64,000 nucleotides of DNA from Clostridia bacterium (GCA_050950825.1 JBMNIH010000001.1:55073-119072); one strand, 5' to 3'; counted from the stretch's first letter, positions 40,641 to 54,067 are shown. Program-made: numbers and translations. Notes: generated from the letters alone by a model not told the origin.

Positions 40641-40717
40641 CGGGGTGTGGCTCAGCTTGGTAGAGCGCTTGGTTCGGGACCAAGAGGCCGGAGGTTCAAA
40701 TCCTCTCACTCCGACCA
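40641..40717 (+). tRNA. tRNA-Pro(CGG), integration target
   Basis: CGGGGTGTGGCTCAGCTTGGTAGAGCGCTTGGTTCGGGACCAAGAGGCCGGAGGTTCAAATCCTCTCACTCCGACCA. Confidence 0.97.
40673..40717 (+). repeat. attL core (45 bp, 3' part of tRNA-Pro)
   Basis: TTCGGGACCAAGAGGCCGGAGGTTCAAATCCTCTCACTCCGACCA, identical to 48991-49035. Confidence 0.95.
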
Positions 40718-40847
40718 AATAAATAAGCGGGTTTCAGGGTTTTGAGAATTTCAAAATTACTCGAAAAAATGCCCGTTTACACACTTTTTACACACATTGA
40801 AATACCGGGAAGCTTTTTGCCTCCCGGTCAAGATTTTTACATTAGTT

Positions 40848-42029
40848 TTAATTCTCTACTAGGGAAGCCAGCAGGTTGCCAACCTTGTCAGCGGCTTCCC
40901 TTTTCATTTTGGCCGTAACACTTGAGTAAACGTCCATCGTGAAAGCGGAGAAATGGTGCCCTAGGGTCTCCTGTATCGTCTTTACGTCAACGCCTTGCTC
41001 TAAGGCCAGGGTTGCAAATGTATGTCTTAGGCCGTGAAAGGTAACATTAAGGCCAGCCTTCTTAATTAGCCGTTCAAATACCCTGGTAAAGGCCCTGGGG
41101 CAGATCGGTTCTCCCAGCTCGTTTGCAAATACCAGGTCCAGGCCCTTTTCATCATAAGCACCGCCGGCCATAAGCCGGTATTCAGCCTGCTTCTTTTTAT
41201 GCTCCTTCAGCACCTGCACCACCGCCGGGGCAAGGTTGATCACCCTGTTAGATAACTTTGTTTTTGGTTCCTGAAATACCAGCCCTTGGCCGCTCACCCT
41301 TACCAATCCCTGGTTAACGGTAAGCTGGCCTGCCTCAAAGTCTATGTCTTTCCACCGCAAGCCAAGCAGTTCGCCTCTTCTCATGCCTGTGTTTAAAGCC
41401 AGGAAGAAGGCTACAAAGTATTTTGAATCTTTTGCCGCAGCCAAGAACTTAGCCACCCCTTCAGTGTCCAGGTATTTTATTTCTTTCTGCTCTCGTTTTG
41501 GCAACTTCACCGCATCAGCAGGGTTAATCGTTACCATCCCTTCTTTTTTGGCTTGCTCCAATGCTGAATGAATGACGGTATGAATGTAACGAACGCTTTT
41601 AGGGCTTAAGCCGCCATCCTTGCCGTCAAGCCTGCCGCCATGCAGTTTCTCGTTGTAAAGCCGCTGAATATGTGCCGTCTGCAGCTGTGCTAACTTCAAA
41701 TGTCCCAGGGCCGGTATTATATGCCCATTTACCTGGTATTTGTAGCTCTCCCACGTAGTGGGCCGCAGAGAAGGTTTCATATAATCGTTAAGCCAGGTAG
41801 TAAACCATTCAGCAACGGTCAGTTTTGACGGTTCCCGGTAGGTCCCGGCCTGCACCTTCAGGGCCACCTCATTGATTTTTTCTTGCACCTCTTTACGGGT
41901 CCTGCCGTAAAAGTATTTCCGCTTCGGCCTGCCGGTTTCCAGGTCGTAACCTATCAAGACGCTACCCTGCCATTTGCCGTCTTTTCGCTTGGTAATGCTC
42001 CCTTCGCCGTTTCCTCTTCTCTTTGCCAT
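40848..42029 (-). CDS. int: Tyrosine integrase
   Basis: MAKRRGNGEGSI arm domain; TGMRRGE, HGLRH, LGH, Tyr (MDVY) catalytic set intact. Confidence 0.95.
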   Translation of the reverse strand: MAKRRGNGEGSITKRKDGKWQGSVLIGYDLETGRPKRKYFYGRTRKEVQEKINEVALKVQAGTYREPSKLTVAEWFTTWLNDYMKPSLRPTTWESYKYQVNGHIIPALGHLKLAQLQTAHIQRLYNEKLHGGRLDGKDGGLSPKSVRYIHTVIHSALEQAKKEGMVTINPADAVKLPKREQKEIKYLDTEGVAKFLAAAKDSKYFVAFFLALNTGMRRGELLGLRWKDIDFEAGQLTVNQGLVRVSGQGLVFQEPKTKLSNRVINLAPAVVQVLKEHKKKQAEYRLMAGGAYDEKGLDLVFANELGEPICPRAFTRVFERLIKKAGLNVTFHGLRHTFATLALEQGVDVKTIQETLGHHFSAFTMDVYSSVTAKMKREAADKVGNLLASLVEN

Positions 42030-42143
42030 AATAGGATTACCTCCTTTCTGTCTCTTGTTATCTTTAATTATCCTTACTTATCTTTAGTTTAACATATTCT
42101 TATATATAGTCAACATTAGCGTAAAGTAAGTTTCGGATAATAA

Positions 42144-42689
42144 TCAATGGAGGAATATAACAAATAGAAAGAGGACCCCGATTGTGATATGATTAAATTT
42201 CCAAAACAAAAAATCACTGACGTTGATTTTTACCTTAAAATTAAGCATTTCATCAACCAATACCTTGGCAAGTTTAAGGTCGCTTGCCACTTTCAACCTG
42301 CCGGATTGAAGCAATACCTGCAGGGTCGTTACCAAGTCCCGCTTTGGTACGTGGTAGCCTCCATCACCGACAGTAACCACGTTTCCCCCGGTTATCGTTA
42401 TCGCTACTGGCCGCAGGCCGGCTTTACGAAACAGGTCCACCACGGGCCGGCCAACACCGGTAGCATCTACTACCAAGGCCGCCTGGTTTAATAGCTTGTT
42501 AGACTGCACCAAATCCTGGACTTTCTCAACAATGGCCGGGTAGGGGGTTCCCAGTTTTGGCCGCTCTAAGTGTCTAATGTGATATTGCTCTCTGGGCAAA
42601 CTATAGTTAAAATGTTTACGCTCAATAATTGTTAAGGCTGTATAGTCCTGCGCCTGTCCCAAGTCAAGGCCGATATAGAAGTTATACAC
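42144..42689 (-). CDS. Terminase large subunit RNase H-like nuclease domain as a separate gene, apparently C-terminally truncated
   Basis: GTG start with GGAGG RBS overlapping the upstream stop; IGLDLGQAQDYTA and VVDATGVG acidic motifs; no C-terminal HDD-type motif after FKVKINV. Confidence 0.75.
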   Translation of the reverse strand: MYNFYIGLDLGQAQDYTALTIIERKHFNYSLPREQYHIRHLERPKLGTPYPAIVEKVQDLVQSNKLLNQAALVVDATGVGRPVVDLFRKAGLRPVAITITGGNVVTVGDGGYHVPKRDLVTTLQVLLQSGRLKVASDLKLAKVLVDEMLNFKVKINVSDFLFWKFNHITIGVLFLFVIFLH

Positions 42690-43455
42690 CTTCAACACCT
42701 CCAAACAAAGGTTCAACTTCCTCTGTTATTGCCGCCATCACCTGGTCATAACTAAAAACCTGGTCCACCGTTTCCACGAATTCACATAGGTATTCCTGCT
42801 TAAACCACCATTCGCCAAGGGCCTGTCGCTCTTCCTCCAGGAATTCCGGGCTTATCCTGGGGCAGTCATGGGCCGTTATCATTATCCGCTCCCATGTGTC
42901 GCCGCCTTCCGTCCACTCCTTGAAGAAATGGCCGCGCTTGCCGAATGGAGTAGACATTAAGATCAGCCTGCCGCCGGATACTGCCAACATGGGCCTCACG
43001 GCAAAGTAAAGGTCGTCCGGCACCCTGGCCGCTTCATCTTCAATAATTAAGTTTGCGCCGCTAAAGCCTCTTATGGTTCCTTCGCTACCGGGTAGGGAGA
43101 CTATCCGGCTTTTGTTTTTCATGGTAAAGGACAGCTTGTTATCCTCTATAAGGTCAGGCTGCTGCTCTGCCGGTAATGCCTTTAAAAACTCCTTCACCTT
43201 GCGAAATAACTCTGAAGATTGCCGAAGAGAAGGGCTAACCAGAAGCACCAGGGAAGAAGGGTAAAATATTGCTCTGTGCAGGGCCAGAATTGCCGCCGTG
43301 GTAGACTTGCCACTTTGCCGGCTGCAGTTTAAAAGTAACCGCTTACCACTCCAGCGCAAGGCCTGCTCCTGCCAGGGGTCAGGGGTAAAGCTTAATGCTT
43401 CCCTGGCAAACAGCACCGGGTCCAGCGCTTGTGATAAGTCACTGGCCAACAACAT
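42682..43455 (-). CDS. Terminase large subunit ATPase domain
   Basis: PWQ adenine motif, SRQSGKST Walker A, LIIEDEAA Walker B, MSTP coupling motif, QEYLCEF. Confidence 0.88.
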   Translation of the reverse strand: MLLASDLSQALDPVLFAREALSFTPDPWQEQALRWSGKRLLLNCSRQSGKSTTAAILALHRAIFYPSSLVLLVSPSLRQSSELFRKVKEFLKALPAEQQPDLIEDNKLSFTMKNKSRIVSLPGSEGTIRGFSGANLIIEDEAARVPDDLYFAVRPMLAVSGGRLILMSTPFGKRGHFFKEWTEGGDTWERIMITAHDCPRISPEFLEEERQALGEWWFKQEYLCEFVETVDQVFSYDQVMAAITEEVEPLFGGVEGV

Positions 43456-43933
43456 TGCTTTCCACCTCCCGTAAAGCCCGGGCAACGGCTTGTCGGGCCT
43501 CCGGGTATCTGTCCAGGGCCTCAAGAATTACCGTCCGCAAGGATAGCCATTGGGGATTAATCAGGATATTAACTGTAGCTTGTTCCTGTAGTTCTCCCTG
43601 CAGCCGGGCAAGCAGTTCAAGGCATCCTTTGGCCTCCCTTACTCCCTGCAGGGCCGTCCGCAGGTCGCCGGCCTGCTCTGCTTTGTCAAGGATAGAAAGG
43701 GCCTTGTCCCGTAGTTCGGTTACCTGGTCAAGCAGGCTGTCAGCTTTGGCTATTTCCCTGGCTTCCTGGGCCTTTACCAGCTTCGCCGGCAAGTGGCCCT
43801 CTTTATGCCTGTGCAAGCTGGCTGCCGAAACGGAATACTGTTTCGCTATGTTTCGCAACGAAACGCCTTCAAGCAGCAACCGGTTTATTTCTTCAACTTT
43901 TTCATGTTCGCAAACAGTGCATTTTCTGGGCAT
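43439..43933 (-). CDS. Putative terminase small subunit (HTH + coiled coil)
   Basis: MPRKCTVCEH..SLRNIAKQYSVSAASLHRH HTH, helical oligomerisation region; overlaps the TerL ATPase start. Confidence 0.7.
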   Translation of the reverse strand: MPRKCTVCEHEKVEEINRLLLEGVSLRNIAKQYSVSAASLHRHKEGHLPAKLVKAQEAREIAKADSLLDQVTELRDKALSILDKAEQAGDLRTALQGVREAKGCLELLARLQGELQEQATVNILINPQWLSLRTVILEALDRYPEARQAVARALREVESNVVGQ

Positions 43934-44000
43934 TTCATCAACTCCATAAAAAGTAGTTAGTAGGGGGAAGGGCAGCATTCCAACCTTCCCCCTTAGGTCC

Positions 44001-44690
44001 TTACGGAAGCTTGTCCACACATACCGAAGCATAAAAACGCATGGACTTAATTGTCGCGGCAACGCTTTTTTGTTTGTCTGTAAGGAGCTTCAGCAGCCGC
44101 CGGGCTTCTGCTTGCTTCTGGTCCTGTCTATTAATAAGCGCAGCCTCTTTGGTTTTCTCCCATTCGCTAGGAGGAAACCCTCTGCTTTCCATGTAGAGGG
44201 AAGGCCAATCCGAAGCGCCAAGCAGCCAGGCCTTAACTTCATCGCCGGTCTCCAGCGCCTTTTCAAGTTCCTGGCCTAAGCGCATTCTTGCTGCGCTTTT
44301 ATCCATAGTATCAAGCAGCATCTTTAAATCGGCCTTCAGGTTCAGCAGTTCGCCCTGATCAAGTTCCTTAGGCTTTGGCACCGTGAGTATTTCCTGAAGT
44401 CTTTCAACCTCTTTCTGCAGTGCTTCGTTCATCTTCTCAACCTCTGCTGTGTAGGTTTCTACTACCATCTGTTTTACCTCGTCCATTTTACGCCGTCTGT
44501 AGTCGTCCGAAATGTCACCATTGCCCAGTAAAGATATAATCTCATTTTGTGCTTTTCCTAGCGCACCTGTTACCGCTGCAATACCGGCATCCACTGCATT
44601 TCTTAAGGTAGTAGGTACTTGGTCTGCGATCTTGTTCCACTCAACCAACAACGCCGTCCTAACGGTTTCATACTCTTTAATTCCCATCAT
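44001..44690 (-). CDS. Hypothetical all-helical protein of the element
   Basis: ~229 aa, GGAGG RBS, coiled-coil character; no family recognised. Confidence 0.7.
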   Translation of the reverse strand: MMGIKEYETVRTALLVEWNKIADQVPTTLRNAVDAGIAAVTGALGKAQNEIISLLGNGDISDDYRRRKMDEVKQMVVETYTAEVEKMNEALQKEVERLQEILTVPKPKELDQGELLNLKADLKMLLDTMDKSAARMRLGQELEKALETGDEVKAWLLGASDWPSLYMESRGFPPSEWEKTKEAALINRQDQKQAEARRLLKLLTDKQKSVAATIKSMRFYASVCVDKLP

Positions 44691-44762
44691 GTTTATCATC
44701 CTCCGTAAAGTGTGTAAAATTAATGTAACGCCTCGGGAAACGCCTGAATACCTGACATTTTG

Positions 44763-44957
44763 TTATTGCCTCTTGTCTCTTAACAATGTGTCCACCTCCT
44801 TCGTTACCCTGGCCTCATACTGCCGCCGCCGCAATATCGCTTTACCACGCTGCAGGGCCGTCTTTATCACCTCTGGGGGAAGGTTGTGTAATAGCTCCTT
44901 CTCCGTCAAGAACAAGGTCGCCTTTGTTATTTTAATTTCGATAAACTTGTCAACCAT
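44763..44957 (-). CDS. Small hypothetical protein
   Basis: MVDKFIEIKITK..RGKAILRRR; AAGGAG RBS. Confidence 0.6.
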   Translation of the reverse strand: MVDKFIEIKITKATLFLTEKELLHNLPPEVIKTALQRGKAILRRRQYEARVTKEVDTLLRDKRQ

Positions 44958-44959
44958 TA

Positions 44960-45283
44960 TTAACGTCTCCTTCTTGGTAACTTCTTCCACCAGCCCGGGT
45001 CAAGCACCGGCTTACCATTTACCCAGCGAACGTCCAGCGGGTCATATTCGCCGATTCCCAAAGTCTCATTAATAGGGTAGGGGAAGGGGTCCCTTTCCCT
45101 CAACTCTGCTTCCCTTGCCTGCAAATACTTAAACGCTTCGGATTTTCGGGCTTTAAGTTCCTCCAGCAATGGTTTCACAACTGCTGGATCAGGTCTCTCT
45201 TTGCCTTCGTGTTTGAACTTAATCTGTTCGCCTTCAAGCTGAAAACGGTATCCCAGCTTTTCAAGTTTTCTTAAAGCTTTCAT
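44960..45283 (-). CDS. Small primase-associated protein (TubC-N docking-like)
   Basis: LEKLGYRFQLEGEQIKF..P...LLEELKARK pattern, directly after the primase. Confidence 0.6.
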   Translation of the reverse strand: MKALRKLEKLGYRFQLEGEQIKFKHEGKERPDPAVVKPLLEELKARKSEAFKYLQAREAELRERDPFPYPINETLGIGEYDPLDVRWVNGKPVLDPGWWKKLPRRRR

Positions 45284-45284
45284 A

Positions 45285-47270
45285 CTAAAACAACCCCTCA
45301 GCAATATCATCATATTCCAAGGTATCTTGCCCATCACTTTGGGCATGGGCAACATGGGCAACATATCCAAATGCCGATTCTATCGGGGTTTTCGTATCTT
45401 GCCCATCTTGCCCATCGGTATTTGTATGGGCAACATCATTCCCTAAAGTATCTTGCTCATGCTCTTTTGTGTGAGCAAGATACTCATCGGGTAAATACCA
45501 GCAATTAGGTTTTCCGTTTTTACCGTAGAGAAATTTTATTCCTAACTTTTCCCTTGCTCTCCTTGCTGTTTTATCTGTTATGCCAACTTCCTTCCATTTC
45601 TCCCTAATTTCTTTGCAGGGGACTTTTTCACCGTTTCCCAGTATTCCTAAGAAGAACTCCACTGCTTCGTCAAGGGCTGGAGTTTCGGTTTCCTTTTCGT
45701 CTTTTTCCGGTATCGCTAATAAATCTTCGGCTGTGCAGCTACTAACCCCCGCCCACATAAAGCCATCAAGCTCGGTTATAGTGAAGCCCTGCGTAACCCC
45801 TTTTTCAGCGCAGCTGCTTTTTGTATGCACCATCGCCTTTTCGCCGGTCGAAGATTTTTCGCCTACAAGAAGAATACTTCGTGCTGCTGCCGTAAAGTCA
45901 ATGCTGCCTAGTCCCCGGTAAATGGCCTTCCCGCCGCCGGTTTTACTTAAATGCCGAATAGCAATAACAGCGCAGTTATATTCCTCTGCCAGCTTGCCTA
46001 AGCCTGAAAGTAGGGGACGGGTTTCGTTCGCTCTGTGCATATCCACCGGGCCTAAGTAGCCTTGCAAGGGGTCAATCACTACCAGCGCAGGTTTTACCTG
46101 TTCCAACGCTTCCCGTAATGCACCAATGTCCCGTAACGTAAAAGCCTTTTCCTCAGCTTCTTCGGCCTCCCGCCAACCTGTAAGACAATATACTTTACTT
46201 CGGTCTGCGCCCATTTTCTCAAGCCTTGGAACGATTGTATCAGCCAGCCCGTCCTCAGCAGTCATAAATAGAACTGTGCTGGGTTCGGTAACGAATTCTG
46301 GCTTGCCGTCCTGTCCTGGTAATGGCCAGCCGTTAGTAGCGGCTGCACATAAATTTAAAGCTAAAAAGGTCTTTCCCAGTCCGGGATCGCCTTCAAGAAT
46401 TGTTAATTTTCCTTTAGGGATATATGGTTTCCAGAAGAAGTCAACGTCCTCTGGTTCTACATCGGCCAAATTTATAATAGAAGGAATGACTTTCGGGCCG
46501 GGTCTCCACTCTGGACACTCTGCCGCCAACCGCAATAATTCGTCTTTTGTCCCGCCAGCAGTCAGCCAATCTGAAACGTCCCCTTTTTCGGCCAGCTCCG
46601 GCAGTTCCAGCACCCTGACGCTTACTGCTTTGCCGTAAAGAGATTGCGCCACCTGCTGTGCATGTTTACGGCCGGGTTCGTCATTATCCGGCAGGATTAC
46701 AGCCTTAGCGCCCTTCAAATGTTCGCTGTAATAATCCCGCCATTTTCCTGCACCCATCGGGCTTGTCGTAGCCGCCAGTCCCAACTGGACCAGGTTGTTT
46801 ACATCCTTTTCACCTTCCGGTATGAACACCATTTCCCCCCGTTCCACCGCTTGCAAGACTTCCGGCAGCCTATAAAGAATGGGCTTAACCTTGCCAAGGC
46901 CATTCACCCAACCGCCTTTACCATCAGGCCGCCGCTGGAAGAAACGCTTGTCCGCTGTCCTACAAACTTGAAAAAGCAGCTTCCCGTTTGCGTCCCGGTA
47001 GTCATAAGTAGCAACAACAGGGCTTTTCCCGCCTGCATAGACTTTAGGTTTTTGTGGAAACAAGTCCCTTAGATCAATCCCTAGGGCCCGGCAAATATCA
47101 TTAACAGAACAGCCAGCATGGCAATGAATTAAAACCCGCCCGTCTTTGCCTTCGCTTACGTGCAAGCTTTGCTTTTGGTCATCGTGGGCCGGGCAAAGGG
47201 CCTTCCAGCCATTGCCGCAAGGTTTGACGCCATTTAAGCGGGAGAGGATACTGTTCATTACCTGATTCAT
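45285..47270 (-). CDS. Primase-helicase (Zn-finger + TOPRIM + AAA_25/RepA-like helicase)
   Basis: CPAHDD..HCHAGC; EGEKD and PDND TOPRIM motifs; GDPGLGKT, VVIDP, RHLSK, RGLGS. Confidence 0.92.
   Translation of the reverse strand: MNQVMNSILSRLNGVKPCGNGWKALCPAHDDQKQSLHVSEGKDGRVLIHCHAGCSVNDICRALGIDLRDLFPQKPKVYAGGKSPVVATYDYRDANGKLLFQVCRTADKRFFQRRPDGKGGWVNGLGKVKPILYRLPEVLQAVERGEMVFIPEGEKDVNNLVQLGLAATTSPMGAGKWRDYYSEHLKGAKAVILPDNDEPGRKHAQQVAQSLYGKAVSVRVLELPELAEKGDVSDWLTAGGTKDELLRLAAECPEWRPGPKVIPSIINLADVEPEDVDFFWKPYIPKGKLTILEGDPGLGKTFLALNLCAAATNGWPLPGQDGKPEFVTEPSTVLFMTAEDGLADTIVPRLEKMGADRSKVYCLTGWREAEEAEEKAFTLRDIGALREALEQVKPALVVIDPLQGYLGPVDMHRANETRPLLSGLGKLAEEYNCAVIAIRHLSKTGGGKAIYRGLGSIDFTAAARSILLVGEKSSTGEKAMVHTKSSCAEKGVTQGFTITELDGFMWAGVSSCTAEDLLAIPEKDEKETETPALDEAVEFFLGILGNGEKVPCKEIREKWKEVGITDKTARRAREKLGIKFLYGKNGKPNCWYLPDEYLAHTKEHEQDTLGNDVAHTNTDGQDGQDTKTPIESAFGYVAHVAHAQSDGQDTLEYDDIAEGLF
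45322..45483. repeat. Iteron-like array (putative origin) inside the 3' end of the primase-helicase gene
   Basis: Eight copies of TTGC(C/T)CA(T/C) or its reverse complement, in three inverted groups (45322, 45345, 45354, 45394, 45408, 45426, 45448, 45471). Confidence 0.8.
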
Positions 47271-47563
47271 ACGCTATCCCTCTCCCTTCTATTTAGTTCC
47301 TCCTTAATTGCCCTGTAACGGGCTTTAAGCCAAATAAAGGCCGGAATGAATTGCCCCGGTCCAGTGAACAGCCAGGGCTGCTGCCGTAGGTCCAATTGCG
47401 CCAGGGCCGTTTTTACTTTGTAAAGTTCCTGCCATAGGGAGAAAACGTCAAATTCCTGTAGGTCCAAGTTATTAAACCTTTGCAGTTCTTCATAACTGCT
47501 AATAATATCCGGGAGAAAATAGCTAGCATTGCGAATTCGCTGTTTTTTTGCTAAAATAACCAT
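47267..47563 (-). CDS. Hypothetical protein upstream of primase
   Basis: MVILAKKQ start with GGAGG RBS; ATGA overlap with the primase start. Confidence 0.65.
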   Translation of the reverse strand: MVILAKKQRIRNASYFLPDIISSYEELQRFNNLDLQEFDVFSLWQELYKVKTALAQLDLRQQPWLFTGPGQFIPAFIWLKARYRAIKEELNRRERDSV

Positions 47564-47699
47564 AAGAGTATCCCTCCGTCCATCTGCCTGCTCCCGGTCC
47601 GCCTGCCAGCCGCCGGGGGTTTTATTTTGTGTGTAATTTTTTTGTACGCCCTTTCTAAAGCCGCATAAAACCTGCATTTTGGCTTCGTTCCCGTTTTGC

Positions 47700-47888
47700 T
47701 TACTCAAGGGGTTCGACCGCCTTTCGCTGCAACCATTCCTGAAGCATGTCCGCCGGAATTCTTATATTTCTCTCGCCAACCTTGACGGCTGGGAAATCCC
47801 TTGTTTTTGCCAGGCGTAAAATCGTTTTGTAGGATACGCCAAGCGCCGCCGCAGCCTCTTTAGGAGTTAAAACAGGTTTTTGAAGCAT
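47700..47888 (-). CDS. Excisionase / HTH_17 DNA-binding protein
   Basis: LTPKEAAAALGVSYKTI..FPAVKVG..IRIP; AGGAGG RBS. Confidence 0.88.
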   Translation of the reverse strand: MLQKPVLTPKEAAAALGVSYKTILRLAKTRDFPAVKVGERNIRIPADMLQEWLQRKAVEPLE

Positions 47889-47928
47889 TTTTAATCCCCT
47901 CCTTGTGCTAAGTTCCTTTATGTTGAAA

Positions 47929-47957
47929 TAAAAAAACGCCAGCTTTTGCTGACGTTC
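47929..47957 (-). terminator. Intrinsic terminator after the regulator gene
   Basis: ACGTCAGC-AAAA-GCTGGCGT followed by a T run on the minus strand. Confidence 0.65.
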
Positions 47958-47983
47958 TTAATCTTTGCTATTGCCTTATTTTT

Positions 47984-48724
47984 TTATATGTTTGTCTCTA
48001 GCTTTACCAACATCTTCCACCACTCGTCAAAATTAGGGGTTTCACCTTCGGTTAATGTAACTGGGTTCAAAACCCTTAAAAAGTCGTATCCATCCGGTAT
48101 ACCTTCCTCAAGTGCTGGATAATTCGCTACAGGAAACAATTCTAATTCAATAGTTCTTTCGGTTGTGCCTCCAAGGTCGATTTTACTCCCTTTTTTACTT
48201 ATCACCACTACAGGCAGACGCTGCCCCATCGCTTTGGCTTTAAATGCTAACCAGACAAGCGCAGCAAAGTTTTTAGGGCTTTTAAAAATATTCAACCAAA
48301 AAGCATTTTTGTCGCCTTGCAATGCAATTTGCCTTATTTCTGCGACTTCTTTAAAGTTTATCCCCAGTTTATCTTTTAAATGCTCAGAGGCATAAAACTC
48401 TGCTGGAGTATCATCCGGATAAAGTACTATTGTCCCTTTTCCTCTGCCCCCGCCTTTCATAAAAGGCCTTGGGATAAGTTCATCTTGATACCTGCGCTGT
48501 AAAGTTTTAGGTTTAACCGAAAAACCTAAACGTAACAACTGATCAATTACATCCTGTGGGGTTAGCTTGTACTCCGGTTTCTTTACTTTTTTATTGACAT
48601 AAAAACCATAAGTAATGCCGCCCAAATAAGGGTCCTGGTAATTATTACAAAACACATTGAACGGGGTTAAATCAGTTTTTCCATATTTGTTCCTTTTTGA
48701 AATGAGATCTTCCAATAGACACAC
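47984..48724 (-). CDS. Putative regulator with MerR/Xis-like winged HTH
   Basis: LTPQDVIDQL..GFSVKPKTLQRRYQDELIPRP...GRGKG...YP; GTG start with GGGAGG RBS. Confidence 0.6.
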   Translation of the reverse strand: MCLLEDLISKRNKYGKTDLTPFNVFCNNYQDPYLGGITYGFYVNKKVKKPEYKLTPQDVIDQLLRLGFSVKPKTLQRRYQDELIPRPFMKGGGRGKGTIVLYPDDTPAEFYASEHLKDKLGINFKEVAEIRQIALQGDKNAFWLNIFKSPKNFAALVWLAFKAKAMGQRLPVVVISKKGSKIDLGGTTERTIELELFPVANYPALEEGIPDGYDFLRVLNPVTLTEGETPNFDEWWKMLVKLETNI

Positions 48725-48786
48725 CTCCCCCTATACAGAAGACATTTTATGCTGGACATTTGGCTCTCAATTACTGTCCTATGTAA

Positions 48787-48815
48787 ATACTAACATACCT
48801 TTTCAAGGTTGTCAA
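48787..48815 (-). promoter_or_regulatory. sigma-A promoter of the element regulator gene
   Basis: TTGACA-17 nt-TAGTAT with extended TG. Confidence 0.7.
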
Positions 48816-48990
48816 TAGCCAAATTTTTTATCTTAATTATGGGCAAGGTTCGTACACACAAAAGTACACACTTTAAGAGGGAATATAATTCCACGCAAGG
48901 GAATATAGTAGGACTTGCCAGTGTCAGGAATGCAGTAAAATAGGGGCTTGAGGGCATATAGAGGAATTAAAGGGAATATCTCCCACGTTC

Positions 48991-49035
48991 TTCGGGACCA
49001 AGAGGCCGGAGGTTCAAATCCTCTCACTCCGACCA
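48991..49035 (+). repeat. attR core (45 bp duplicate of the tRNA-Pro 3' end)
   Basis: Identical to 40673-40717. Confidence 0.95.
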
Positions 49036-49039
49036 TCAT

Positions 49040-49074
49040 TCCCAAGAGTTATCATTCAGCTCTTGGGATTTTTA
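49040..49074 (+). terminator. Terminator, probably the displaced tRNA-Pro terminator
   Basis: TCCCAAGAG-loop-CTCTTGGGA-TTTTT just after attR. Confidence 0.75.
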
Positions 49075-51595: not shown

Positions 51596-51922
51596 TTAGT
51601 CGTTATTGAAGTTTAAAAATGGTTCCAATGCTTTGAAAGCATAAGCTATTGTCATACCGTCTACAACATTTCCTAAAGCATAAATCAACTTCTCACTGTT
51701 GTAGAAAGTATCATTAAGGGTACTCAAATGGCACCCTGCGCTAAAATCAGGAAGACAGGCAAACAACCCTGAGGTTGATTGACCAACCAGTACCCGCAAG
51801 CTGCTCCGGCTTAAAATGAAAATCTCATAGTGGCTGCCGAAATTAATAACCTGGCTAACAGTACCATGCCATATGTCTTTACTACCATCATCCCATTGAT
51901 AAGAACAGTGGAATTGTATCAC
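51596..51922 (-). CDS. Small transposon accessory protein (DUF6618-like)
   Basis: GTGA overlap with the ATPase stop; WHGTV..YEIFI.SRSS..GLFACLPDF..GCHLS. Confidence 0.6.
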   Translation of the reverse strand: MIQFHCSYQWDDGSKDIWHGTVSQVINFGSHYEIFILSRSSLRVLVGQSTSGLFACLPDFSAGCHLSTLNDTFYNSEKLIYALGNVVDGMTIAYAFKALEPFLNFNND

Positions 51923-52719
51923 GCCAATTCCCCCTGTATCACGAGCTTTACCATATGGTCATCAATGATTTTGCGGCCATTTTGAGCACCGAACAGCAGG
52001 CAATGGGTGCAAAGCTTGTTTATGAGCCTGGCAGAGCCGCTGGAATACTTAAATATCTCATCCAACGCCGCTTCAGAGAAAATTTCCCTGTCGCAAGCTG
52101 CATACTCTAAATGTCTATGTACGTATTCACCCACCTGAGCCCGATCATAATGATTCAGTTTGCACTGAATATCAATACGTTGCTTGATGGCGGCATATGC
52201 CTGGAGCTGGAATTTATCCCACAACTCTGACTGTCCCACCAGAATTAAAGCCATTGGGCTTTCTGAGTCCATCTTGAAATTCAGCAGGAAACGAACCTCT
52301 TCCAGCATCTCTCGGTCTAAAAGATGAGCTTCATCAACTATGACAACAGGCTGCAGTTTATGGATTCCCTTCATAAGCTCAATTTCCCGGTGCAGCTGGC
52401 GTTTGGCATCTCCACGGTAGAATTTTGCCTCACACCCCAGCTGCTCCAGTAAACCCTTGTAGAAATGCCTGGGCGTCAGTTTGGAATCGGCAAGGTACAT
52501 AACATGAAATCGTGAAGAGTCCAGAATATCCCGGAAACGGCGGATAGCTGTGGTTTTGCCGGTACCGCAGTCCCCGGTAACAACAGCGAACAACTGACGA
52601 TCTGCAGCATATTGCAGGCGCCCTAATGTCTCTTCCAGTATGATGGGCTGATAAAGCTGGTCAGTAGGAATATCACGTGTGAAGGGTGTGCGTTTAAACC
52701 CATAAAAGGCTTCAAACAT
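51919..52719 (-). CDS. ExeA/TnsC-type AAA+ ATPase
   Basis: MFEAFYGF..PF, GDCGTGKT, IVDEAH, LILVGQ, RLINK. Confidence 0.9.
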   Translation of the reverse strand: MFEAFYGFKRTPFTRDIPTDQLYQPIILEETLGRLQYAADRQLFAVVTGDCGTGKTTAIRRFRDILDSSRFHVMYLADSKLTPRHFYKGLLEQLGCEAKFYRGDAKRQLHREIELMKGIHKLQPVVIVDEAHLLDREMLEEVRFLLNFKMDSESPMALILVGQSELWDKFQLQAYAAIKQRIDIQCKLNHYDRAQVGEYVHRHLEYAACDREIFSEAALDEIFKYSSGSARLINKLCTHCLLFGAQNGRKIIDDHMVKLVIQGELA

Positions 52720-54067
52720 TCTGCTCACCACCCTTGGCCACGTTTCTGTAAGAGACGGCAGGCATGTACTGTTCTATGCGCTGCTCGTTCTTCTTTTTGG
52801 CTGCTCTTAGCAAGCGGGATGCCTCCGCTTTTTCGGTGGTAAGATGTTCCGGTAAACCAGGCCGCCGACCGGCCCGTTCACCAATCACCAGCTTTTTAGC
52901 CTTCCATGGGCTATGGCCTTCATACTCAATGGTAAGCTCGTCCGTGCATGCCGGATCATAGATCACATCTACAGTGCAGCCAATAAAGGGAAGGCCAACC
53001 TCATACTTTTGGCCGTTGAAGCTGATACAGCCTGCTTTATCCACCTTGCGTTCCTCAAAATGCAAAAACGCCTGAGCCAGGACGTCCGGGTCAATAAACC
53101 TTTGGGGTTTCGTATCACTTCGGTATGCAACCTCCGGACTCATGTGATTCACCAGGGCGGAATGGGGCCTGTTCTGATAGCATTCGGTAAGCCATACCTG
53201 GAACAGCTCGTTCAACCTTTCCAGGGTCTGTGGTTTCTCCAAAGCGGCCTCTGTAAGAAAGGAATCCACTACCCGGTTCAGCCTCTCAACTTTGCCGGTT
53301 GCTTCCGGCGAGTAGGGGCGGGCATAGAGCAGACGAATGCCCATTTTTGCACATGCCCGTGTCATCCACTTGTTCCTGTATTGGCTGCCGTTATCAAAAA
53401 ATACGGCCTCGGGCACACCATGCTTAAGAATGGACTTCCGGAAGCAATCCTCTACGATGACTTTATCCAGGGTGGGATAAAATTCTCCATGAAGAACGTA
53501 TCTGGTAGCATCATCCACGAAGAGAACCAAAAACACCTGCTTTTTTTCTCCATCCCTGCCGATAGGAAGATAAGGGCCATACTTGATGTCCGAATGCCAG
53601 AGCTTATTGCGATACCGATGTTGGAACCTGCGCGCTGCTACTCCCGTTGAAGTGTACATTTTCATCTGTCTTGCACTGTATCCCCGGTTTGCCAATTGCT
53701 CCTGCAGTGTGCTGCGCTTTATCCGGCCCGGCTCTACAATTCCTTCCCACTCCAGGATGTTTATCAACTGTGATACGCTACGGCTTGGAACCTGCCTGCG
53801 CAGAAGAATAGCCTGCTCCAATACATGGGATGGTATGGCATCCTCTGTTTTTCTTTGGCTCTTTCCTTTAGGCTTTAAACCGTCGAATCCGGCTTCCCGG
53901 TATTGTGCCACATATCTTCGGAGAGTACGCTCTGATATACCGGTTTGTTCACATATTCGGGCTTTGATCTCTTTCGCCTTTGCAGGATCCAGGCCGTCGG
54001 CCAGCAGTGGCGATATCAGTTCCATCCGCTCCTGTGCTATTATCTCTGCTTTCCTCTGATCTCTCAT
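52712..54067 (-). CDS. DDE-type integrase/transposase (rve core + Mu-like C-terminus)
   Basis: N-terminal HTH; WHSDIK, FFDNG, GKVER catalytic triad; RKVDKAGCISF. Confidence 0.92.
   Translation of the reverse strand: MRDQRKAEIIAQERMELISPLLADGLDPAKAKEIKARICEQTGISERTLRRYVAQYREAGFDGLKPKGKSQRKTEDAIPSHVLEQAILLRRQVPSRSVSQLINILEWEGIVEPGRIKRSTLQEQLANRGYSARQMKMYTSTGVAARRFQHRYRNKLWHSDIKYGPYLPIGRDGEKKQVFLVLFVDDATRYVLHGEFYPTLDKVIVEDCFRKSILKHGVPEAVFFDNGSQYRNKWMTRACAKMGIRLLYARPYSPEATGKVERLNRVVDSFLTEAALEKPQTLERLNELFQVWLTECYQNRPHSALVNHMSPEVAYRSDTKPQRFIDPDVLAQAFLHFEERKVDKAGCISFNGQKYEVGLPFIGCTVDVIYDPACTDELTIEYEGHSPWKAKKLVIGERAGRRPGLPEHLTTEKAEASRLLRAAKKKNEQRIEQYMPAVSYRNVAKGGEQNV

Follow-up and report, generated by a model that had tools for sequence, protein, structure and literature searches.

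The phage satellite P4 carries sites that are recognised by the terminase of its helper. Phage-inducible chromosomal islands (PICIs), with a median size of 9.5 kb, redirect packaging through a small terminase (TerS) or a TerS-modifying protein and are not expected to have a large terminase (TerL) of their own, while the defining genes of capsid-forming PICIs (cf-PICIs) are those for capsid, head-tail adaptor and connector, and such elements use their own capsids and steal tails only (accessible text of PMC10085698; 10.1101/2022.09.08.507074). Some VEIMEs, marine integrative mobile elements that are encapsidated in virions, are described, in the available part of the source, with small terminase homologs and ‘motor-like ATPases’ (PMC9618062). 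Here we describe an 8.3-kb element in a 64,000-nt stretch of DNA from a Clostridia bacterium (GCA_050950825.1, JBMNIH010000001.1:55073-119072; hereafter the window), which carries a putative small terminase gene and a large terminase divided into an ATPase gene and a nuclease gene, with no recognised portal or capsid gene between its attachment (att) sites. We favour, though with appreciable doubt, the reading that it is one damaged copy from a widespread family, as yet unnamed, of 8–13-kb PICI-like elements that have their own terminase and are packaged in helper procapsids. The family is probably a new PICI-like satellite class.

On one hand, as far as the accessible descriptions go, the element resembles PICIs and the Staphylococcus aureus pathogenicity islands (SaPIs) in its size, terminal integrase, candidate helix-turn-helix (HTH) regulator and excisionase genes, primase-replicase with adjacent candidate iterons, putative small-terminase-like gene, tRNA integration, and lack of capsid, tail and lysis genes. 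On the other hand, it carries a large terminase, and no capsid-morphogenesis gene was recognised; the hosts of its family also differ from those of PICIs, being anaerobic Bacillota, Desulfobacterota, Dadabacteria and Acidobacteria metagenome-assembled genomes (MAGs). Set beside the PICI definition used for SatelliteFinder (de Sousa et al. 2023), integrase and primase-replicase are present, and the TerL ATPase and nuclease stand where a typical PICI has no further structural or packaging genes of phages; of the regulation module (alpA, merR or stl) there is an excisionase-like HTH_17 gene (2.2e-14), and no AlpA- or Stl-specific profile matched, none having been run separately. The element shares with cf-PICIs, by the text available on them, that a TerS (here putative) and a TerL are both encoded on an integrative element of small, satellite-like size; unlike them, it and its eight complete relatives have no matches to capsid, adaptor or connector genes, and its TerL consists of two genes. 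VEIMEs, compared by description only, are likewise small integrative elements with integrase, excisionase and primase-helicase, and differ in that the helper is expected to supply the large terminase and that the accessible text mentions no TerL nuclease (PMC9618062).

Compared with a Terminase_6-type large terminase, the ATPase domain is present, the RNase-H-like nuclease is incomplete in the window, and two polypeptides replace the single one. No Pfam or PHROGs match points to P4-like core genes (psu, delta, sid, alpha, eps-type), with no P4-specific models used, and the portal, major capsid, tail and lysis genes of a complete tailed prophage were not found within the att sites. The full-text literature, with most subscription journals and supplements outside its scope, yielded no description of a satellite with TerS and TerL but no capsid genes, nor of a two-gene TerL of this kind; the accessible text of related papers is also without such an element (PMC10085698, 10.1101/2025.02.15.638363, PMC12822802, PMC8407400, PMC7156551, PMC9618062). 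An initial annotation had proposed that a terminase without head genes fits none of the PICI, cf-PICI and P4-like types and may mark an undescribed family, a proposal supported by the relatives described below.

Relatives with a terminase and no recognised head genes

We call an element complete where its whole content is known between att sites or around a circle. There are nine such elements, the window’s and eight relatives, of 8.3–13.3 kb, and none has a Pfam match to a portal or capsid protein:

Window element: 8.3 kb, 45-nt att repeats
L001: 11.6 kb, 58-nt att repeats in tRNA-Leu(CAG)
L125: 11.2 kb, paired tRNA-3′-like sites
L133: 10.4 kb, paired tRNA-3′-like sites
L131: 10.5 kb, terminal repeat equal to the att core, either a circle or attL/attR
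L127: 9,139-bp circle, 57-nt terminal repeat
L178, L191 and L194: 9.8–13.3 kb, terminal repeats of 70, 127 and 35 nt, no integrase

These elements come from several phyla. PHROGs likewise returned no portal, capsid, head-tail adaptor or connector match for the 11 open reading frames (ORFs) of the window element, and neither Pfam nor PHROGs recognised tail or lysis genes in it. When L127 is closed through its terminal repeat, a full TerS-like ORF is restored, and the circle has a single tRNA-3′-like site directly after the integrase gene (int), as one would expect in a concatemer or in an attP form after excision. The three elements without integrase have D5/RepB-type or Toprim primases, L178 together with a ParE toxin gene, and may live as episomes or plasmid-like elements within the family. 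L001 has frame breaks in its ATPase, nuclease and int genes, which may be sequencing errors because the assembly is long-read.

Partial loci give a similar picture. The initial annotation had looked to intact relatives for portal and capsid genes between nuclease and int; no such genes lie there in L128, a near-twin of the window element, or in 12 further loci (L001, L005, L017, L121, L123–L125, L127, L130, L131, L133 and L134). The integrase gene follows 0.5–2.6 kb after the nuclease gene in the partial loci L005, L017, L121, L123, L124, L130, L134 and L135, and host genes follow in L009. A further 23 metagenome loci reach 2.4 kb or more past the terminase; 18 of them have no head or tail gene, three do (SPP1 portal in L155 and L156, minor tail protein in L198), and two have giant unknown proteins only (L174, L188). 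The check proposed at the outset, whether att-bounded homologs consistently have a split TerL and lack portal and capsid genes, was borne out, as regards portal and capsid genes, in 9 of 9 complete elements. Judged by gene content, head genes are absent from the family as a whole, and their absence is no artefact of deletion.

The copy in the window and its damage

The element lies between two exact 45-nt direct repeats, the first of which is the 3′ 45 nt of a tRNA-Pro(CGG) gene, and the att sites are thereby as the initial annotation had placed them. It had also described a one-directional cassette, and all 11 ORFs are indeed on the minus strand, in the order given; the G+C content is 46–52% in the element and 34–43% in its flanks. 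Pfam and PHROGs bear out the excisionase, primase-helicase and integrase. The ‘regulator’ (47984–48724) has no family match, the only lead being a weak MerR-like one (0.88). The features are as follows:

40641–40717 (+): tRNA-Pro(CGG), att core at the integrase side at 40673–40717 (ARAGORN; Rfam tRNA, 65.9 bits; 45-nt repeat)
40848–42029 (−): tyrosine integrase, 393 aa (PF00589, 9.8e-30; PF14659, 3.7e-17; phrog_1, 4.6e-86)
42031–42114 (−): 84-bp spacer upstream of int, unique in the genome, with a promoter-like site at 42113–42086 (consensus match only)
42115–42217 (+): end of an insertion sequence (IS), the first 103 bp of a multicopy IS, marking the deletion breakpoint (11 other genomic copies)
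42144–42689 (−): TerL nuclease gene, truncated, homologous part 42218–42689 or 157 codons (Terminase_6C, phrog_27743, alignments, blastn against L128)
42682–43455 (−): TerL ATPase gene, 257 aa from M24, ORF open to 43524 (Terminase_6N, phrog_7579)
43439–43933 (−): TerS-like HTH protein, 164 aa from M44, putative small terminase, ORF open to 44062 (weak Sf6_terminase and HTH_psq matches; synteny)
44001–44699 (−): all-helical protein, 232 aa (no Pfam domain; structure model)
44763–44990 (−): 75-aa ORF, no family in Pfam or PHROGs, kept in L127, L128 and L008
44960–45370 (−): 136-aa ORF, no family in Pfam, PHROGs or PADLOC, 99–100% identical in L127 and L128
45324–45481 (no strand): three 32-nt palindromic sites at 45324, 45405 and 45450, candidate replication-origin iterons (repeat search)
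45285–47270 (−): primase-helicase, 661 aa (AAA_25, 1.7e-34; Toprim_2; Zn_ribbon_DnaG/CHC2 zinc finger; phrog_6088, phrog_239)
47267–47707 (−): 146-aa ORF, no family in Pfam, PHROGs or PADLOC
47700–47888 (−): excisionase-like HTH_17 protein, 62 aa (PF12728, 2.2e-14; phrog_66, 5.6e-11)
47984–48724 (−): 246-aa ORF, no family in Pfam, PHROGs or PADLOC; a unit of its own with a promoter-like site at 48815–48787 and a terminator-like hairpin at 47959–47932 (consensus scan)
48991–49035 (+): second att core copy, with a terminator-like hairpin next to it at 49040–49068 (repeat and consensus scan), presumably the original terminator of tRNA-Pro

The ATPase matches Terminase_6N (PF03237, 4.2e-15) and phrog_7579 (1.4e-67, covering 3–238 of 239 profile positions). 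Its residues G49 K50 S51 T52 and E139 D140 E141 are invariant in the alignment, and we take them to be Walker A and Walker B. Its start was placed at M24 (43455) from stops upstream of the conserved methionine in L002 and L003 and from the alignment, and that of the TerS-like gene at M44 (43933) from the relatives. The nuclease matches Terminase_6C (9e-6, profile positions 1–120 of 155) and phrog_27743 (2.9e-36). The junction reads as it was first described, with GGAGG (42702–42698), 8 nt, and a GTG start (42689–42687) in overlap with the ATPase stop TAA (42684–42682).

In the alignment of relatives, where the nuclease domain is complete, D9, D75 and H172 D173 D174 are invariant. The window nuclease never matches past residue ~157–158 (tblastn maps, 19 genome loci); it leaves the family after ‘...KVKINV’, is without the conserved block ‘...HDSYEAWREGxHDDLVLAVALAxWY’, and its last 24 codons run into the IS end. 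That 103-bp piece recurs at 11 other places in the genome with 96–100% identity, and since all of these continue with shared IS sequence, the window keeps only the IS end, fused to nuclease codon 157. Full copies encode a transposase of the UPF0236/ISLre2 type (PF06782, 5.6e-65 in L026). The copies lie on contigs C2, C3, C6, C8, C10 and C11 (loci L024–L033), and the IS looks recently active in this genome.

The near-twin L128, a metagenome contig, is 100% identical in int over the 137 residues on the contig, 96% in the primase-helicase and 100% in two small ORFs. Window 42999–42218 aligns with L128 4528–5309 and window 42030–41614 with L128 6170–6586 (blastn), so that 187 bp of the window (42031–42217) stand for 860 bp of L128 (5310–6169). 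Those 860 bp hold the last 44 codons of a 201-aa nuclease. Between nuclease and int there is then only an HTH_17 gene of 75 aa, oriented the other way, and an ORF of 101 codons, both within the 860 bp, and the deletion therefore removed no head genes. On this comparison an IS of the ISLre2 type inserted 84 bp upstream of int, and a deletion starting within it then ran into the nuclease gene. The caution in the initial annotation that a local deletion could have removed genes was thus sound as to the deletion itself, the truncated nuclease and the lost HTH_17 gene, and unfounded as to head genes. By comparison with L128, the window copy is defective, lacking the nuclease HDD block and the HTH_17 regulator gene; it is probably still able to excise and replicate, and unable to cut and package its own DNA.

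The 32-nt palindromic sites sit at the 3′ end of the primase-helicase gene; they fit origin iterons, a putative role. L127 and L128, which share the window’s primase-helicase, keep four and three sites, respectively; the sites are absent from L001, L125, L122 and L130, where the primase matches the window’s only over about the first 257 residues. Contig joints in two sequencing runs gain or lose one 45-nt spacing unit at 45349–45460 (45407 to 45453 skipped; 45460 back to 45349), and the number of sites accordingly differs among strains. A conserved opposite-strand protein of ~335–369 aa stands beside att in the intact relatives L001 (3893–5002), L125 (1891–3000), L133 (232–1335) and L127 (4536–5543); it has no Pfam or PADLOC match (that of L001 no PHROGs match either), and the window has the unrelated 246-aa ORF at that place.

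The two-gene large terminase and its lineage

To the initial annotation the split of TerL looked like a design and not like an indel, and the homologs agree. Among genome loci with both halves, the halves are separate in 14 of 15 (the window, the duplicate L021 in its own genome, and 12 loci on other genome contigs) and fused only in a Meiothermus phage (L020). The junctions vary, taking the forms GTGTATAA, ATGTATAG, ATGAGTAA, a same-frame TGA|ATG, or spacers of 110–160 bp. Of 80 IMG/VR loci found through the nuclease alignment, the nearest 36 have a split TerL without exception, a fused one occurs in 29 that are more distant, and 15 have one half only, while of 80 metagenome loci found through the ATPase alignment (at least 63% identical) 71 have both halves, in separate genes in 71 of 71. 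The order is permuted to nuclease-TerS-ATPase in L143, L144 and L151, and in L192 the nuclease lies 8.6 kb away, upstream, so the halves act as independent genes. A single-ORF TerL was found in none of the close homologs, and no junction indel was seen among the 12 rows listed of 16, from four sequencing runs. Spacers between ATPase and nuclease hold tandem ATATCGTCC-like repeats in L002 (1429–1590) and L007 (1393–1546), and are 110–165 bp long in L122, L125 and L127.

The nuclease profile had 10,830 matches at E ≤ 0.001 among 1.84 billion representative proteins, with 2,952 clusters passing E ≤ 1e-30; among the 150 best, 147 have lengths of 175–311 aa, two are ~397 aa, and one is a fused TerL of 479 aa. 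PHROGs lists phrog_27743 as ‘unknown function’, and the nuclease half is for that reason probably missed in routine annotation.

Many split loci belong to phages. Of 33 split IMG/VR loci, in which 137 ORFs lying downstream of the nuclease were scanned, 17 have Pfam matches related to portal, head or tail; the portals are of the Portal_Mu, Phage_portal, SPP1_portal, T7-type Head-tail_con and SU10 types, accompanied by Mu F, capsid and cement proteins. PHROGs adds L036, L058 and L074 to the loci with head or tail genes, and L060 has an HK97-type capsid gene upstream. The split is therefore a trait of a phage TerL clade and not of the element alone, and tailed phages with a variety of portals commonly have, by natural design, their large terminase in two genes. 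The clade takes in IMG/VR loci L034–L069 and L074 and metagenome loci L119–L198, with at least five portal types. One Acidobacteria MAG holds three to four copies (L014, L015, L016; a fourth Terminase_6N match at G405:C33), each with a second nuclease paralog in tandem; Terminase_6N covers residues 312–506 of a 550-aa ORF in L015, a possible TerS-ATPase fusion, with MazF-like and SIR2-kinase (PD-T4-6-like) genes downstream.

Uncultured temperate phages in IMG/VR (L047, L043, L041 and L036, for example) have homologous TerS-like, ATPase and nuclease genes in the same order, the ATPase of L047 being 72% identical; they differ in having genes for Portal_Mu, a Mu F-like protein, a protease and capsid immediately after these, their contigs being 15–40 kb long. 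Thermus phage Riverbug and Meiothermus phages MMP7 and MMP17 share 50–54% identity in the ATPase part of TerL and differ in being cultured, complete phage genomes of 33–34 kb, in which TerL is one ORF of 415–417 aa followed by portal and head genes (Riverbug and MMP17, the latter with 415 aa) or is cut at the record start (MMP7).

A FastTree phylogeny of 130 ATPases places the window in a 54-row clade (support 81), in which 22 of 22 labelled rows are head-less and ATPase identity goes down to ~63%. Its sister is L047, on a 35-kb contig with Portal_Mu, Mu F and protease (55-row node, support 91), and the circles without integrase fall in another head-less clade, of 12 rows (support 100). The head/no-head label changes at least nine times on the tree, five of the changes being forced by starred branches. 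L055 and L056, near-copies of L054, were left out, as were the distant fused loci except four used as outgroup; an earlier quick IQ-TREE of 54 rows agrees in outline. Ratios of nonsynonymous to synonymous substitution (dN/dS; pairwise Nei-Gojobori, pairs with unsaturated dS) are 0.05–0.15 for the ATPase, with 0.15 and 0.07 in the head-less pairs window-L001 and L009-L010, 0.09–0.21 for the nuclease and 0.12–0.35 for the TerS-like gene. The terminase genes are under purifying selection.

Proposed packaging by a helper and the competing explanations

Members of the family insert beside tRNA 3′ ends by means of a tyrosine integrase and an HTH_17 excisionase, and have a replication module of their own, the primase-helicase with candidate palindromic iterons at its side. 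After excision and replication, we envisage, the TerS-like protein and TerL would cut concatemers of the element, and TerL would dock on the portal of procapsids of a co-infecting helper, so that helper capsids and tails carry the element’s DNA; packaging would probably be headful. The likely helpers are related split-TerL phages, L047 with its Mu-type portal being the nearest head-bearing relative, and the helper would supply procapsids, tails and lysis only. We put at about even chances the fuller proposal that this is an undescribed, multi-phylum satellite class, abundant in anaerobic digesters, which takes helper procapsids and tails, brings a TerS-like factor and a two-subunit TerL, and has its helper decided by the fit of TerL to portal rather than by TerS mimicry. 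If true, an own full terminase without head genes would be a fourth satellite strategy, with the TerL-portal contact as the point of parasitism. Detection rules such as ‘TerL implies capsid genes’ or ‘a PICI has no TerL’ would miss these elements, and the natural split offers a ready system for studying cooperation of ATPase motor and nuclease without a covalent link.

Several points weigh against packaging by a helper. We infer helper dependence and encapsidation from genes, and the source runs are whole metagenomes. Head genes were looked for with Pfam and PHROGs profiles, which are able to miss divergent proteins, and the head-less labels of L121, L124, L128, L133, L135 and L139 come from tblastn maps only; the ATPase tree was built with FastTree only and has many open forks. 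No capsid-size-redirecting gene was recognised in the element, and the three circular relatives without integrase also fit a plasmid-like life. Profile matches of the TerS-like protein are weak (Sf6_terminase, 7e-4, below the Pfam cut-off; phrog_1482, 9e-4), and although it is 42% identical to Riverbug_33, whose gene lies without annotation directly upstream of TerL in that phage, the depositors of Riverbug give the TerS label to another gene, so that our label stays putative.

Its position is conserved, the gene lying directly upstream of the ATPase gene and syntenic with TerL in more than 60 loci, phages and elements alike. The own TerS of the initial annotation stays putative, and the fold searches lend it nothing significant: the model (predicted local distance difference test, pLDDT, 76) had no PDB match at E ≤ 0.001, Sf6 TerS ranking only 7 and 17 (E 0.7–1.2), and a sequence-profile search of the PDB returned designed helical proteins only. 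A sigma-70-region-4-like gene after the nuclease (L127, L001, L125, L135) was considered as a counterpart of Riverbug’s annotated TerS and rejected, since there is no similarity.

The search for a helper in carrier genomes, which found none, also counts against packaging by a helper. In the element’s own genome (97% complete, 11 contigs) the one Terminase_6N match is that of the element, with no match to the TerL_ATPase family, to Phage_portal, SPP1_portal or Phage_capsid, or, by tblastn, to any of 20 proteins of head, portal or tail from relatives. Five other carrier genomes have 1, 1, 1, 3 and 4 Terminase_6N matches, the single ones of G401–G403 lying at the contig positions of L001, L005 and L009. 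Neither a circle junction nor an empty site of the window copy was found in contigs of four whole-metagenome runs, a result that carries little weight coming from contigs. For Portal_Mu the own genome and the five carriers gave no match, a result made uninformative by an equally silent control. The loose ends listed at 40717/40718 include none that continues like the sequence beyond the second att copy.

The alternative that survives best, though we think it unlikely, is that the terminase does not serve capsid transfer. The element would then be an island or plasmid-like replicon whose TerS-like protein and TerL resolve its own concatemers or act against phages, by portal competition or concatemer cutting. 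The lack of helper or head genes in every carrier genome tested and the integrase-less circles fit such a role, as may defence genes beside relatives, inside or outside their boundaries: GajA in L054 (516–2429, E 6e-186), a type IIG restriction-modification pair, enzyme and methylase, in L145 (12805–17388), PDC-S47/Abi_alpha in L154 (6168–6872) and the PD-T4-6-like kinase in L015. Phages of the same clade, however, place this terminase set directly before their portal genes, and the TerS-ATPase-nuclease module has been kept intact under purifying selection. We know of no non-packaging role of a TerS/TerL set. Schlafen-like and NB-ARC/TPR proteins were also seen beside a relative (L167, 11792–17695).

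Far less probable is an autonomous minimal virus with capsid and portal among the unrecognised ORFs. Five ORFs of the window element (232, 75, 136, 146 and 246 aa) have no family, nor any PADLOC match, and the best viral fold match of the 232-aa helical protein is named ‘capsid morphogenesis protein’, at a level that is not significant (E 0.075, TM 0.29). Against this, the unassigned ORFs sum to 835 codons, the largest of 246 aa, none being of portal size (>400 aa), and there are no tail or lysis genes. The helical protein is modelled at pLDDT 91 (predicted template modelling score 0.79) and, being all-helical, is not an HK97 fold. Searches with the model (PDB Foldseek, BFVD, VIA-align wide) found generic helical bundles only, with best values (E 0.068, E 0.075, Z 11) below a meaningful level for helical folds. 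Its 81 homologous clusters, many on 9–13-kb contigs, include none with a Pfam domain, and close relatives keep the gene upstream of the TerS-like one; in a protein atlas, it and the 246-aa ORF fell in unnamed clusters only, apart from the weak MerR lead.

A decayed prophage or cf-PICI with leftover terminase genes, to which the IS-associated deletion with its truncated nuclease and the frame breaks of L001 (if not sequencing errors) might point, is very improbable and largely refuted by the 860 bp that alone were replaced relative to L128, the equally head-less content of all nine complete elements from several phyla, the size and age of a head-less clade with ATPase identity down to ~63%, and purifying selection on the terminase genes. 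We consider a non-packaging or defence role, a plasmid-like life and hidden capsid genes each less likely than packaging in helper procapsids.

Within the class, 2 of 400 genomes have the ATPase, the element’s own included. At least half of the element’s sequence words were found in 14 DNA runs, with the labels digester, biogas, bioreactor or simply ‘metagenome’, and the 20 rows concerned come from 12 studies. Summed contig depth of the terminase module is ~10 times that of the primase module; contig depth is a poor measure, and we read from it that many element variants share the packaging module. The best IMG/VR relative has a nuclease identity of only 57%, whereas metagenome contigs gave more than 500 relatives, and virus finders therefore appear to miss these elements. 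A metatranscriptome contig of 2,202 nt (run X16, record 11), a ~95% identical variant, spans the helical, TerS-like and ATPase genes (window 42556–44704), which hints that the packaging module is transcribed in digesters, DNA carry-over being possible in an RNA library. Outside the element, G+C content rises again from 52000, and a 270-aa ORF at 51919–52731 (−) reads by eye like an ExeA/TniB-type AAA+ transposition helper, which may belong to another mobile element nearby.

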